Assembly (NCBI GenBank): GCA_965203935.1
Contig: OZ241921.1
Span: 839,354 to 903,353, forward strand
Length of the DNA: 64,000 nt
Direction of reading: 5' to 3'
DNA from: Bdellovibrionales bacterium
Lineage (GTDB): Bacteria > Bdellovibrionota > Bdellovibrionia > Bdellovibrionales > UBA1609
This document shows positions 19,778-63,531 of this stretch, piece by piece. Below the pieces are notes generated by a model. That model worked only from the letters and a program-made list of their open reading frames with translations. It was not told where the DNA came from and ran no database searches. Within the stretch, counting starts at the first letter, position 1. The number at the start of each line of letters is the position of its first letter. The position numbers and the translations under genes are program-made.

Positions 19778-19940
19778 TTTTTCACACCCGACTAATTAGT
19801 AGCCCGTGAAAAAGGCTACTAAACTGCTGGTCTGCAAGCAAAGTCCAAGCTTGTTCGAGACGGAATACCTTGGACTCTCACCGCTTGGCTTTGCTTGCAG
19901 ACATAATTTGCAGGTGTTTTTCACGCCCGACTAATTAGTA
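19778..19940. repeat. mosaic palindromic repeat cluster R1 (junction-hairpin-junction)
   Basis: cccgactaattagt..cgtgaaaaagg on the left and gtttttcacgcccgactaattagt on the right flank the hairpin gcaagcaaagtccaagc-[ttgttcgagacggaataccttggactctcaccg]-cttggctttgcttgc. Confidence 0.8.
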
Positions 19941-20261
19941 TCTGGTGTGTTAATATCTGTGAAAAGCGTATAAATAGCAAATAAAAGGCGGAGTTTTTGC
20001 TTAATCTTAAAAAAAAATTGTAAATGTATGAAAAATTTACATGCTTTTTCTTATGTATAAAGATTTTAGACAGTCACCTATAAAAATATTTTATGGGTGG
20101 TTAAAGAGGCCGTAAAGGCCACTCAATGTGGCTTATTTCTCCGCCCGGCCCCTTTACTGCAACAAAAATTCCGCTGTATTTTTTTTATAAAAGCCCTTGA
20201 CAGGCTTTTTTTATCTTTTTAAAAAGGTTGCTACAGTTTAAAGGGCGGGAATAGGTGATAT

Positions 20262-21491
20262 ATGAATCTGACAGAAATGACCCAAGCAAATTATTTGTTC
20301 AAGCTGGGTAAAAATCAATGCTCCACAGGGGATTTTCCCCCTGCGATAAGAAATCTTAAGCAGGCAAGCGCCCTTTTTTTAAAGGAAAAAAGCTATCACT
20401 CCTATTTGAAATGCCAACATATTTTAATCATTATGTATACAGAAATGGAGGATTTTCAGGCTGTTGAGCGTGTGCGCGGCGACTTGGCCAAGGTGATATG
20501 GAGCCATAAATATTTGGGCGCGGATTATTCCCGATTTCATTATTCTTTGGGGTTTTGTTTTTTGAGGCAAAAAGAGTACGCCAAGGCTCAGGCGCAGTTT
20601 GAGCAGGCCCTTAATCAAAATCTGAAACTTCAAAGGCGGGCGGGGGAGTGGAAGGATCAAAAAAACCTGCTGATGTCCAAAGTGTCCGCCTGTTATGTCT
20701 CTTACGGGTTTGTATGTCTTTATACTTCCAATAATCAAATTCCCGAGGCTGTGCAGGAGCTGAAAAATCTGGAATCTCTCATCAAACAGCTTAAGGACTT
20801 TCGCGCTCAGCTGAAACCGGCTAAAGGGGAGTTTACAGCGCTCTATGAGGATTCCGTGGAAGAGCAAAACTCTTTGGATTTTATATATAATTTTTCTAAA
20901 GCGAATATTTTAAGGCTGGAGCAAAAATATGAGTCCGCAGAACAACTGTACTGGCTTTGTTATGAGCAGGCTCAGCGCAATGTGAGAAGAAAATATATGT
21001 CTTTGCACTTGTTTTACCACTTAAGCAAAAACTATATCGGGAAAAAAAATTACGAACAGGCCGCTTTGTTTCTGGATCTGGCTAAAAAGTCTGTTAACCC
21101 CGATATTTTTAAAGACATGAACGCCAAAATCAATCAAACTTATGAAGAGCTGAAAACCGCCATGACAGACAACTATGATATTGTAGTGAACTTTGACAAT
21201 AAAATGATAGTGGAAAAGCAAAAAGGCTATATTGAGATCCGCAACCAATTTGTTTTGTTAGACATGCTGAAGCTGTTTGTTTCTCATCAAGGCGCTGTGT
21301 ATTCAAAAGAAATGCTGGTGGAAAAAGTTTGGAAACAAAAATACGACCCCCGTGTGCATGACAATAAAATATATGTGACTGTTAAGCGACTTAGGGAATT
21401 AGTTGAGCCGGATCATAAAAAACCAAAGTATATTTTCAGAACAAAACAAGGATATTATATCAGTAAAAATGTAAGAATTTTACTTAAGTAA
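20262..21491 (+). CDS. transcriptional regulator with N-terminal TPR-like helical domain and C-terminal OmpR/PhoB-type winged-helix DNA-binding domain
   Basis: The C-terminus (VLLDMLKLFVSHQGAVYSKEMLVEKVW...NKIYVTVKRLRELV...IFRTKQGYYI) fits the trans_reg_C pattern (LL..L....G.v.sre.L...vW......r.vdv.I.rLR.KL....I.TvrG.GY). The N-terminus resembles a TPR-like repeat region. There is no receiver domain. Confidence 0.6.
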   Translation: MNLTEMTQANYLFKLGKNQCSTGDFPPAIRNLKQASALFLKEKSYHSYLKCQHILIIMYTEMEDFQAVERVRGDLAKVIWSHKYLGADYSRFHYSLGFCFLRQKEYAKAQAQFEQALNQNLKLQRRAGEWKDQKNLLMSKVSACYVSYGFVCLYTSNNQIPEAVQELKNLESLIKQLKDFRAQLKPAKGEFTALYEDSVEEQNSLDFIYNFSKANILRLEQKYESAEQLYWLCYEQAQRNVRRKYMSLHLFYHLSKNYIGKKNYEQAALFLDLAKKSVNPDIFKDMNAKINQTYEELKTAMTDNYDIVVNFDNKMIVEKQKGYIEIRNQFVLLDMLKLFVSHQGAVYSKEMLVEKVWKQKYDPRVHDNKIYVTVKRLRELVEPDHKKPKYIFRTKQGYYISKNVRILLK

Positions 21492-21579
21492 GGGGGGCAT
21501 ATTATGATACATTGGTTTAGTTTAAAGATGGACGATAATCCTCTTCCCATACCTATACCTGGCATAGGGTGAAGAACCG

Positions 21580-22272
21580 GTGAAGCTTTTTATTTACGAT
21601 CATTGCCCTTATTGTGTGAAAGCCCGTATGATTTTCGGCTTAAAAAATATAGCTGTTGATTTAGTTACCCTTCTTAATGACGATGAAAAAACCCCCGTTG
21701 GTATGATTGGGAAAAAAATGGTGCCGATTTTGGAAAAAACGCCCGGCCGATTTATGCCGGAGAGCATGGACATTGTGCAATTTATTGATAAAAAACACCC
21801 CCCGGCCCTTGTCGTGAAAGAAGAAGACGAAGATCTGTTAAGCTTGTTGGATGAAGCGCGCACAGCCTGTTACAGTTTGGTCATGCCCAGGTGGCTTAAT
21901 TCTGAAATGGAGGAGTTTAAAACCCCTCTTGCGCGAAAGTATTTTCAGCAAAAAAAAGAAAAAATGATTGGGCCTTTTGCCACAGCTTTAAAAAACACAA
22001 AAATTTTTAAAAAAGAAGTGGAAAATCTTTTGTTAAAAACAGAAGACAGGTTTTTGCAAAAAAGCAAAACCCGCGGGGCACACCGCAGGTGGTACTTGGG
22101 AGATCAAATCAGCTTTAATGATTTTCATCTGTTCGCTTTTTTAAGAGGCTTAAGTATAGTAAAAGATCTTTGTTTCCCCCCCGCTTTAGCACACTACATG
22201 AAACATTGCTCGAAAAAAACCCGCATTCCCCTAAACATCAGCCCTTTAAACCAACTGGCAGGCAGGAGGTAA
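21580..22272 (+). CDS. grxB: glutaredoxin 2
   Basis: MKLFIYDHCPYCVKARMIFGLKNIAVDLVTLLNDDEKTPVGMIGKKMVPILEK...FMPESMDIVQFIDK is near-identical in pattern to E. coli Grx2 (MKLYIYDHCPFCVKARMIFGLKNIPVELHVLLNDD...QVPILQK...YMPESMDIVHYVDK). Confidence 0.88.
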   Translation: MKLFIYDHCPYCVKARMIFGLKNIAVDLVTLLNDDEKTPVGMIGKKMVPILEKTPGRFMPESMDIVQFIDKKHPPALVVKEEDEDLLSLLDEARTACYSLVMPRWLNSEMEEFKTPLARKYFQQKKEKMIGPFATALKNTKIFKKEVENLLLKTEDRFLQKSKTRGAHRRWYLGDQISFNDFHLFAFLRGLSIVKDLCFPPALAHYMKHCSKKTRIPLNISPLNQLAGRR

Positions 22273-22274
22273 AA

Positions 22275-62402: not shown

Positions 62403-62567
62403 CTGCTATGTTCGTTCGCGTCCGGCTCACTCACGGCGCAGGCCCCCCTCAGTCGCTCATAAAATCATCCAGATTTTATGCCCCGTGCTAACTGCTCCCA
62501 ATAGGTCGCAGTCATCACGGGTCGCTCCTTCGCTTCGAATCCTGCCGGGATTTTTTGTTAGAAAAAA

Positions 62568-62642
62568 TGGATGGGGTGGCAGGATTCGAACCTGCGAATG
62601 ACAGAACCAAAATCTGTTGGCTTACCACTTGCCGACACCCCA
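62568..62642 (-). tRNA. tRNA-Gln (anticodon UUG), CCA encoded
   Basis: The reverse complement gives tggggtg tc ggc aagtggtaa gcc a acaga ttttggt tctgt cattc gcagg ttcgaat cctgc cacccca t cca. It has a U1:A72 first pair (bacterial tRNA-Gln hallmark), UUG at anticodon positions 34-36 and a TTCGAAT T-loop. The D-stem is short (3 bp), so confidence is moderate. Confidence 0.72.
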
Positions 62643-62687
62643 TTTAAGATAAAAAATATCCGGTATTTTAAGAAAAAAATCAATACT

Positions 62688-63023
62688 TTAATCTTTATTG
62701 TCTTCCGGCTCTTTTGCCTGAGGAGGATTCAGCATGTTGATGCTTTCTTTGTCCGCTTTAAAACCTTTCAGGGTGGATTCATATTCCGCAAAAACCGCGT
62801 TTTGAATCATAGATCTGGTTTGCCGGTTCAAGGGGTGGGCAATATCCCGAAAAGCGCTTTGATTTTTGTGCCTTTTGCTGGGCATGGAGACAAACAGCTT
62901 ATCGTCTGTTCGTATGATTTTCAGGTCATGGACCACAAAACAGTCATCAAAAATGATGCTGGCGTAGGCTTTCAGGCGGTCCTCACCTGGCACGACAGTT
63001 ATTTTGACTGATGTTACTTTCAT
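62688..63023 (-). CDS. spoVG: SpoVG family protein
   Basis: Start reassigned to M12 (ATG at 63023). MKVTSVKITVVPGEDRLKAYASIIFDDCFVVHDLKIIRTDDKLFVSMPSKRHKNQSAFRDIAHPLNRQTRSMIQNAV matches the SpoVG pattern (MKVTDVRLRK...[32 protein letters not shown]...EFRDIAHPIN...R..IQ.AV). Confidence 0.85.
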   Translation of the reverse strand: MKVTSVKITVVPGEDRLKAYASIIFDDCFVVHDLKIIRTDDKLFVSMPSKRHKNQSAFRDIAHPLNRQTRSMIQNAVFAEYESTLKGFKADKESINMLNPPQAKEPEDNKD

Positions 63024-63216
63024 TTTGCTTCCAAGAAGAGTCTCATTTTGAGACATTTTTTTTACAGCTCCTCATTTATGCTTATCGAAATAAAAAAAGA
63101 AAAAATTTAATTTATCCCAAAAATTTTGACTGAATCAGCCAAAAAAAGGGGCTTTTTTTATTTGTGTTCAGGGCTTATTATGCAGTGTATAAAAATAGAT
63201 CCTGCTCCAGAGCACA

Positions 63217-63531
63217 ATAATTAGTGGAGCGTGAAAAAGGCTTCCAAGTGTATTGTCTGCAAGCAAAGTCCAAGCTCATTCGGGACGGAATACCTTGGAC
63301 CCTCTTCGCTTGGCTTTGCTTGCAGACATAATTTAAAGGGCTTCTTCACGGACGACTAATTAGTGGCCTGTGAAAAAATGCCCCTTAAGCATTTTTGTCC
63401 AAAGTCCGTGCTGTGAGAGTCCAAGGTACTCCGTCTCGAAACAGTGCGGACTTTGGACAAAAACAGCTAAAGAGCAAGGGTTGTTCACGAGCTACTAATT
63501 AGTGGCCTTTTTCACGCCCGACTAATTAGGC
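63217..63531. repeat. mosaic palindromic repeat cluster R12 (two hairpin units, conserved loop in opposite orientations, four junctions)
   Basis: A junction is followed by tgcaagcaaagtccaagc-[tcattcgggacggaataccttggaccctcttcg]-cttggctttgcttgc and the junction cttcttcacggacgactaattagtggcctgtgaaaaaatg. The next unit is ttgtccaaagtccgtgc-[tgtgagagtccaaggtactccgtctcgaaacag]-tgcggactttggacaa. It ends with a double junction ttgttcacgagctactaattagtggcctttttcacgcccgactaattagg. Confidence 0.8.

Follow-up and report, generated by a model that had tools for sequence, protein, structure and literature searches.

A dense family of MITE-like hairpin repeats with TAATTAG-type target duplications in a Bdellovibrionales genome

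The Correia elements (NEMIS) of Neisseria are about 100-160 nt long, carry terminal inverted repeats (TIRs), and occur in hundreds of copies in a genome of about 2 Mb; their ends are 26 nt long, they duplicate only TA, and we know of no target-regenerating tandem arrays among them. A TA-only duplication is also typical of MITEs derived from IS630/Tc1-mariner transposons (Nezha, RUP, and Stowaway-like elements). A REP unit measures about 35 nt, has neither TIRs nor a target duplication, and is associated with RAYT enzymes. In Streptococcus pneumoniae the BOX elements, and in enterobacteria the ERIC/IRU elements, are often co-transcribed with neighbouring genes, and Rickettsia palindromic elements (RPE) are often in-frame insertions inside genes.

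The window analyzed here, a 64-kb stretch of DNA from a Bdellovibrionales bacterium, holds about 15 complete copies and additional fragments of a repeat family that makes up about 4.6% of its length (Table 1). These repeat units are probably non-autonomous DNA transposons, a family of bacterial MITEs with a TAATTAG-type target. By description, they share with Correia elements their size range, TIRs, intergenic location, hairpin folds, and frequent position beside gene starts or ends, but they duplicate about 7 nt of TAATTAG, their ends are unrelated, and a conserved apical core tops variable, compensated stems. They are similar in size to IS630/Tc1-mariner MITEs, with TA-rich flanks and an end pattern, xAGT-N5-xxAAAAAG, that is reminiscent of Tc1-type ends, whereas their duplications are 6-8 nt rather than TA only. 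In forming mosaic clusters between genes, with palindromic units that alternate in orientation, they recall the REP, BIME, and REPIN repeats of enterobacteria and Pseudomonas, and a first-pass annotation of the window had proposed a REP/BIME-like family; however, neither the 35-nt size, nor the missing TIRs and duplications, nor the RAYT link fits units of 132-267 nt that have both TIRs and target duplications. BOX and ERIC/IRU elements are, again by description, modular or mosaic, intergenic, and built of long imperfect palindromes, but they lack a comparable TIR-plus-duplication signature and are unrelated in sequence. RPE are likewise described as abundant hairpin repeats (100-150 nt) of a small genome, but no window copy lies inside a gene. 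Literature searches returned nothing relevant on the end sequence, on MITEs of Bdellovibrio, or on symbiont MITEs with a 7-bp duplication. The family is undescribed; the kind of element is already known, but this family is dense and neatly organized.

Table 1. Elements, partial elements, and stubs of the repeat family in the window (z, hairpin z; positions are those of the window).
Feature	Position	Strand	Description
Stub	~6470-6510		Site paralogous to that of the decayed copy; outside the range first annotated
Decayed copy	~9922-10062	+	Outside the range first annotated
Stub beside E19797	19772-19792		6 nt of one end and 15 nt of the other
E19797, full	19800-19931	+	132 nt; TAATTAG at 19793-19799 and 19932-19938; z -5.2; cluster between divergent genes
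Half element	31283-31350	+	One end, one arm, part of core; interrupted by E31355
E31355, full	31358-31489	- (core strand)	132 nt; TAAGTAG on both sides, 31351-31357 and 31490-31496
E32375, full	32378-32509	+	Left TAATTAG (32371-32377) holds TAG stop of Band_7 gene; z -6.7
E32514, full	32517-32674	-	158 nt; extra hairpin in core; TAATTAG common to E32375
Solo left end after E32514	32682-32700
Solo end beside E43881	43861-43875
E43881, full	43884-44097	+	214 nt; two extra hairpins; 8-nt duplication TACTTTAG
Right-half element beside E43881	44106-44196
E44953, full	44956-45089	-	134 nt; flanks TAATTAG and TAATTAA; z -7.8
E45330, full	45333-45464	+	132 nt; flanks TAATTAG and TAAAAAA; z -6.6
E53975, full	53978-54172	+	195 nt; TAAATAG on both sides
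E56307	56310-56576	unassigned	267 nt; family ends; unrelated interior forming a long hairpin, z -9.5
E57389, chimeric	57392-57524	+	Arms from two subfamilies, no hairpin (z 0); inserted directly after a TTGCCA-18-TATAAT match
E57529, full	57532-57678	-	147 nt; variant core; z -6.0
Solo left end after E57529	57686-57702		Just ahead of gene start at 57718
E60808, full	60813-60971	-	159 nt; TAAAGAG on both sides, 60806-60812 and 60972-60978; left duplication holds TAA stop of PEP-mutase gene
E62189, full	62192-62323	+	132 nt; GAATTAG on both sides
E63222, full	63225-63356	+	132 nt; first of tandem pair; z -5.4
E63361, full	63364-63495	-	132 nt; 87% identical to E31355
Stub after E63361	63503-63522		20 nt, flanked by TAATTAG

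The elements are recognizable by their ends. Scanning the window with the end motif TAGTCGGGCGTGAAAAA gives 27 matches at up to three mismatches (0.21 expected), and ACTAATTAGT is found exactly seven times (0.02 expected); the matches at 12301 and 58231 fall within ORFs and appear to be fortuitous. The ends pair in opposite orientation, 132-267 nt apart, as imperfect TIRs of 15-17 nt, (G)TCGGGCGTGAAAAAGG ... CCTTTTTCACGNNCNAC. What they enclose has no coding capacity: all copies fall within the usual bounds of a MITE (non-coding and shorter than about 500 nt), and the longest contains no ORF of more than 50 aa. The same ends also surround an interior unrelated to the others, that of E56307. 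When the elements are compared with the window by BLAST, the matches merge into exactly 12 clusters between 19.8 and 63.5 kb, which, with end motifs far beyond chance, bears out the twelve-cluster family of the first-pass annotation. Elsewhere in the window lie one decayed copy and one stub. The MITE-like character proposed for the family is also supported, given its TIRs, direct target duplications (some of them non-consensus yet the same on either side), lack of coding sequence, many copies, and relatives in other genomes. The two ends of each element differ systematically, one being GGG-type and one CC-type and never both GGG-type. Read on one strand, they have the same polarity (GGG...GGG), and the position of the GGG-type arm varies relative to both the flanking 7-mer and the interior. 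This systematic end difference, together with a core that is better conserved than the stems, is not predicted by a plain MITE model.

The elements are flanked by a direct duplication of A/T-rich target, mostly 7 nt long (range 6-8), whose consensus is TAATTAG. The flanking 7-mers are identical in 10 of 15 elements and match at 89 of 105 positions, and none of 20,000 re-pairings of the flanks reached either figure. Four of the perfect pairs depart from the consensus (TAAGTAG, TAAATAG, TAAAGAG, and GAATTAG). The frame of the duplication is uneven, since E43881 and E56307 fit only if it is shifted by one base or extended to 8 nt, and the flanks of E45330 match at four of seven positions. Because the flank repeats are direct rather than inverted, they represent duplicated target and not part of an inverted repeat. 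Other ways of dividing end from target were rejected. A TA-only duplication, as in IS630/Tc1-type MITEs, disagrees with duplications of 6-8 nt and would need a pre-existing 4-nt tandem repeat at each non-consensus target; moreover, there is no TA beside the left end of E60808 or the right end of E62189, yet their 7-mers match. An inner 4-nt duplication (GGGC) within a palindromic outer target would call for inverted rather than direct outer flanks. The inverted ends and 7-base target duplications indicate that the element is a miniature transposon.

The repeats had been described as hairpin units bounded by a 36-bp palindromic junction. Two-armed junctions do exist, at 19778-19813, 32495-32530, 32660-32695, 43861-43897, 57511-57545, 57664-57699, and 63342-63377, but these are only about seven places where ends abut, and the 26-nt core of the proposed junction has a single match in the window at up to three mismatches. 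An isolated element has a single arm at either end, so the units are not bounded by a junction module: the junction is the right end, duplication, and left end of two abutting copies, in which element tip, target, and element tip read ...GAC-TAATTAG-TC.... The accompanying proposal of self-targeting survives in modified form, in that the preferred TAATTAG is recreated on both sides of an element and new copies insert next to or within existing ones, which accounts for the arrays and the nesting. A staggered cut at insertion would duplicate 7 nt (range 6-8) of A/T-rich target, and the fresh TAATTAG on either side could then receive later insertions beside or inside earlier ones, which would yield the palindromic "junction" as well as tandem pairs and copies that are nested or halved. 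Mosaic copies may reflect recombination between elements at the conserved core and ends, and stubs may reflect deletion across the hairpin. Nested, half, and stub copies are all present in the window.

The element interior folds into a long hairpin, at whose apex lies a conserved core of 26 nt. The expectation that the units fold as hairpins is confirmed for 8 of 10 units, with z from -5 to -7.8 (-5 to -9.5 when E56307 is included). At least five sequence versions of the stem occur, all of them fully compensated, with perfect stems of 18-25 bp and double-sided changes in 15 of 36 predicted pairs; the arms thus vary between subfamilies yet stay complementary. The core is better conserved than the stems and includes a covarying 3-bp helix.

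The family extends beyond the window, as a search of related genomes, suggested when the repeats were first noticed, confirmed for a second strain and for two Bdellovibrionales MAGs. The two strains are 99.3% identical, and two contigs of strain 2 cover window positions 2218-32728 and 38191-53368. Among the six clusters that can be compared between the two strains, five are conserved and one is rearranged, and none presents a clean empty site; three conserved clusters differ by one SNP in 639 bp. The cluster at 31243-31490 (the half element and E31355) is built differently in strain 2. Paralogous ankyrin-gene flanks within the window yielded a stub and no clean empty site. Further copies are found in strain 2 at loci outside the window, and one more copy lies 7 kb beyond it. 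In a set of GTDB representative genomes without the window's own genome, a 19-mer end matched seven loci, of which five are real relatives in the two Bdellovibrionales MAGs and two are chance. These relatives, on two MAG chromosomes, agree with the family in their ends, are flanked by matching repeats, and have a GCCAA...TTGGC hairpin in common; matching flanks are seen at the relatives L005 and L007. The exact 19-mer end has no match in JGI metagenomes, where the looser pattern TAGT-N5-GTGAAAAA...TTTTCAC-N5-ACTA retrieved 26 single-copy MITE-like elements with unrelated interiors, none of them adjoined by a transposase; they are not independent evidence of kinship because the pattern itself forced a common end shape. 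No match to the elements was found in plasmid and phage collections (blastn, distant mode), and a 17-mer end gave six chance matches, in unrelated contexts, among viral contigs.

The window and the fetched loci contain neither a matching transposase nor a full-length element that has these ends; we therefore infer that a DDE-type transposase, encoded at another place in the 2.03-Mb genome, would mobilize the elements in trans. Pfam searches of 30 window ORFs detected no transposase or recombinase besides one 562-aa DDE IS. This IS (32729-36892) was rejected as the autonomous partner because it has different ends, as was the ORF that follows a solo end in L007, which is not a transposase.

Other readings of the units as mobile DNA seem much less probable than transposition. 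The units could be cassettes moved by a site-specific recombinase (tyrosine, Xer- or integrase-like), in which case the flanking 7-mers would be a common crossover rather than a duplication and TTTTTCACGCCCGAC-TAATTAG-TCGGGCGTGAAAAA would be a core site in the style of lox or dif, with 15-nt inverted arms around a 7-nt crossover. Abutting ends do have this 15-7-15 geometry, most copies keep to the 7-nt length, each element pairs one GGG-type with one CC-type arm as in heterodimeric sites, and neighbours in tandem arrays use a single 7-mer jointly. We nevertheless regard this as unlikely, because the 7-mers differ widely between copies and yet match within a copy, which a staggered cut explains and a homology-dependent crossover does not; in addition, the flank repeats vary from 6 to 8 nt, isolated copies lack a second, flanking arm, the GGG-type arm has no set position with respect to either 7-mer or interior, and the window contains no recombinase gene. 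A related and equally improbable version treats abutting ends as true recombination sites and the hairpin units as non-coding cassettes exchanged through circles, whose structured 26-nt core would have a function of its own. It is very unlikely that a RAYT enzyme (Y1, IS200/IS605-like) acting on single-stranded hairpins spread the units as REP/BIME- or REPIN-like palindromes: no Y1 or RAYT gene is present in the window, Y1 enzymes make no direct flank duplications such as those seen here, and units of 132-267 nt with clear TIRs are far from 35-nt repeats, even though the units form mosaic intergenic clusters, fold as hairpins, and occur in both orientations, and the GGG...GGG polarity of their ends hints at strand-specific recognition.

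The copies might instead be primarily functional RNA or DNA structures (bidirectional terminators, insulators, or small RNAs) that selection maintains and that duplication, not transposition, has spread. The compensated stem changes and the conserved core with its covarying helix would suit such a function, the hairpin, preceded by an A-run and followed by a T-run, looks like a two-way terminator, and several copies begin at or directly after stop codons. The clusters were correctly described as intergenic, all lying between called genes and none inside one, and with a stop codon inside an element junction, as the TAG of the Band_7 gene (32375-32377) falls within TAATTAGT. The window genome, a small one rich in ankyrin and LRR genes, belongs to an uncultured bacterium that may be related to the Bdellovibrionales MAGs, and the MITEs there sit at gene boundaries. 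Closeness to stop codons follows from the target itself, which contains TAA and TAG and would make gene ends frequent landing sites. The suggestion that the clusters act as terminators or insulators finds no support in their placement: some copies lie between divergent genes, one directly after a good -35/-10 match, and one before the start codon of ribosomal protein S14 (54196), about 21-23 nt upstream of which E53975 ends, its right duplication ending 16 nt before it. Separate canonical terminators already precede two clusters (44830-44863 and 57317-57342). Copies are often placed 5' of genes or between divergent ones. The stems span about 100 nt and contain internal loops; a terminator pattern scan never matched a whole element, its hits being confined, in a few copies, to inner sub-hairpins or abutting ends. 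Core orientation is unbiased relative to gene direction (by our tally, about four sense and four antisense in co-directional gaps), Rfam 15 places no family on the elements at gathering score or credibly at E<=5 (only two tRNAs reach gathering), the chimeric E57389 persists without a hairpin, and function leaves the matching flank duplications unexplained. We consider it quite unlikely that function rather than transposition accounts for the family.

As a family of MITEs, these elements do not overturn what is known of such elements in bacteria, but they offer a clean natural case of a target-specific element that builds arrays by regenerating its own target. Their compensated stems form a set with which to ask whether selection on hairpin shape acts at the level of DNA or RNA, and the end motif is a marker for tracking strains and related lineages. 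For annotation of the genome, two stop codons fall within duplicated target, and the leader of one ribosomal protein gene contains a copy.

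The repeats of this window form a dense, real, and previously undescribed family. Searches of Rfam, of plasmid, phage, and viral-contig collections, and of the literature returned no relevant match. Within the window, TAGTCGGGCGTGAAAAA has 27 matches at three or fewer mismatches against 0.21 expected, and ACTAATTAGT has 7 exact matches against 0.02 expected. When the elements are aligned to the window by BLAST, their hits collapse to the 12 clusters already described and a decayed copy near 9.9 kb. The 36-bp palindromic junction proposed to bound the units is not a general boundary: its 26-nt core matches only once at three or fewer mismatches, and a two-armed junction is seen only at pairs of abutting ends, whereas a unit standing alone has one arm per end.

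Pairing plus- and minus-strand end motifs yields 15 complete units in the window, nine of 132-134 nt and the others of 147, 158, 159, 195, 214, and 267 nt. Each starts with (G)TCGGGCGTGAAAAAGG and finishes with an imperfect inverse of the same sequence; the ends contain GTGAAAAA, and the five positions adjoining the tip are hypervariable. The left and right 7-nt flanks are identical in 10 of the 15 units and agree at 89 of 105 positions, values attained by none of 20,000 random left/right re-pairings. Because these flank repeats are direct and not inverted, they represent a duplicated target rather than an extension of the inverted repeat, and the junction is thus a right end, TAATTAG, and a left end. 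Duplication of TA only, as in IS630/Tc1 elements, would require each non-consensus target matching on both sides (TAAGTAG, TAAATAG, TAAAGAG, GAATTAG, and the 8-mer TACTTTAG) to have pre-existed as a 4-nt tandem repeat. Since such direct pairs exist, and since TA is missing at one end in two units, we read the duplication as mostly 7 nt (range 6-8) with the target consensus TAATTAG. Neighboring units have one 7-mer in common at 32510-32516, 57525-57531, and 63357-63363.

Most interiors fold as hairpins, in line with the first-pass annotation: 8 of 10 short units fold as a single long hairpin (single strand; z -5.0 to -7.8), and the 267-nt unit, which has only its ends in common with the family, folds too (z -9.5). 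The stem of 18-25 bp is perfect or near-perfect inside each unit and comes in five or more sequence versions. RNAalifold shows 15 of 36 predicted pairs changed on both sides. Above the stem lies a 26-nt core, TTCGGGACGGAATACCTTGGACCCTC, with 0-3 mismatches in nine units and absent at that threshold from the rest of the window; its small GGG/CCC helix covaries (GAG/CTC three times, GTG/CAC once), and in longer units the core is interrupted by one or two additional hairpins. The chimeric unit 57392-57524 has arms from two subfamilies and forms no hairpin (z 0), which suggests that copies exchange at the conserved core.

These features are best read as those of a bacterial MITE family whose insertions favor a 7-nt target and regenerate it, a reading that leaves four observations unaccounted for. 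Nearly every unit pairs one TAGT-CGGGY-GTG end with one TAGT-NGYCC-GTG end, so that at three positions the "inverted" repeat is actually a direct one; no unit has two ends of the former type, and which end is of which type is independent of interior orientation. This asymmetry is not explained by the MITE reading, nor are a loop-like core better conserved than the stem, a duplication frame off by one base in two units, or the frequency of stubs and half elements. Together they leave a small chance that abutting ends form genuine recombination sites, or that the core is functional.

A terminator or insulator role, also proposed earlier, is not favored by gene placement. Divergent genes flank the clusters at 19.8, 43.9, and 63.3 kb, unit 53978-54172 ends 23 nt upstream of the S14 start codon, and the unit at 57392 directly follows a TTGCCA-18-TATAAT match. 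Canonical terminators are present at 44830-44863 and 57317-57342, upstream of clusters; one unit separates the PEP-mutase and citrate-synthase genes, which may be co-transcribed; and by our own tally core orientation is unbiased relative to gene direction. The window (~41% G+C; approximately positions 1,477,241-1,541,240 of the circular metagenome-assembled 2.03-Mb contig ena:ERZ25068400:ctg22163_58x_c, 2,030,416 bp) carries housekeeping genes (ClpP/ClpX/Lon, MutL, HisRS, SOD, S14, citrate synthase, and PGK) and encodes proteins with ankyrin, LRR, and TPR repeats. A paralogous pair of ankyrin-repeat genes (~915 aa each; 3749-6490 and 7387-10146) is 80-98% identical in blocks, has an internal periodicity of 99 nt, and is modeled differently in this strain and a second one.

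In that second strain (sample ERZ25070167), contigs ctg379882 and ctg360970 cover window positions 2218-32728 and 38191-53368 at 99.2-99.6% identity. The clusters at 19.8, 32.4, 43.9, 45.0, and 45.3 kb are kept, the last three with 1 SNP in 639 bp; at 31243-31490 the second strain has instead another full unit in opposite orientation plus a different half element. Its contig then departs from synteny and carries more units at loci absent from the window; one further unit lies 7 kb past the window end. Separately, the second strain has 457 nt in place of the 119-nt segment at 23083-23202, which lengthens an ORF there to 224 aa; this cassette varies between the strains and has no relation to the repeat family. 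Among GTDB representatives, two chromosomes of "Bdellovibrionales bacterium" MAGs (OZ241456.1 and OZ241967.1) have the exact 19-mer end at five loci, within complete related units flanked by matching repeats (TATATTA, TAAGTTAA, TAAGTA-). Related units of both MAGs have a GCCAA...TTGGC hairpin in common and lack the 26-nt core. The same 19-mer has 0 matches in JGI metagenomes, where a search forced to a structural pattern recovered other MITE-like elements, each in single copy and not demonstrably related. A different MITE-like family of ~135-160 nt, with ends of tandem AGTGAA(A/T) repeats (…GTGAATAGTGAAAAGTGAAAAATTTGCTACCGC), recurs there across several metagenomes of 50-59% G+C (loci L016, L018, L021, L023, L024, L028, L032, and L038-L040).

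No transposase or recombinase with the family's ends was found within the window. Two tandem IS copies (32729-36892) have different ends, and both are missing in the second strain, where synteny breaks; a solo end of this IS lies at 49042-49075, after eight tandem 12-nt repeats (TTGTGYCATTTA, 48944-49041). That variable sequence is duplicated in a staggered fashion points to a DDE-type enzyme, which would act in trans; a 7-nt duplication alone is insufficient to name an IS family. A called 66-aa gene (45108-45308) lies exactly between elements 44956-45089 and 45333-45464, which have opposite core orientations, in a layout resembling a composite transposon.

The window has other small repeats. 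The 21-nt 3' end of tRNA-Gln (TGGATGGGGTGGCAGGATTCG) occurs at both 62382-62402 and 62569-62589, the extra copy standing 187 nt upstream of the gene. This repeat is without a match in Rfam and could be a tRNA-like RNA or an att-like scar left where some element integrated or was excised. Another repeat, at 32701-32717 and 62363-62379, has a terminal hairpin GCTCCCCCCTTGGGGGG preceded by ...CACGATC...GCCGCGTCGAA... and is tandem beside a tRNA gene in the second strain (locus L014, reverse, 13540-13700).

Positions of IS copies, partial elements, and overlapped stop codons in the window
Feature	Position	Remark
IS copy, ~1.96 kb	32729-34686	562-aa DDE_Tnp_1 ORF, ends CCCGACTTCGACACAAC
IS copy, ~1.96 kb	34944-36892	562-aa DDE_Tnp_1 ORF, ends CCCGACTTCGACACAAC
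Half element	31283-31350	adjoins complete copy
Half element	44106-44196	adjoins complete copy
20-nt stub	19772-19792	
20-nt stub	63503-63522	
Band_7 gene stop codon	32375-32377	inside left duplication of element
PEP-mutase gene stop codon	60806-60808	inside left duplication of element

The anatomy of the units suggests how arrays may arise. Insertion would leave the preferred 7-mer on either side of the element, and later copies would land next to or within older ones at these regenerated 7-mers, which may account for tandem pairs, half elements beside complete copies, and 20-nt stubs. Self-targeting stands in this altered form, with the regenerated 7-mer as the probable target. Copies would likewise lie near stop codons because the target itself contains TAA and TAG.
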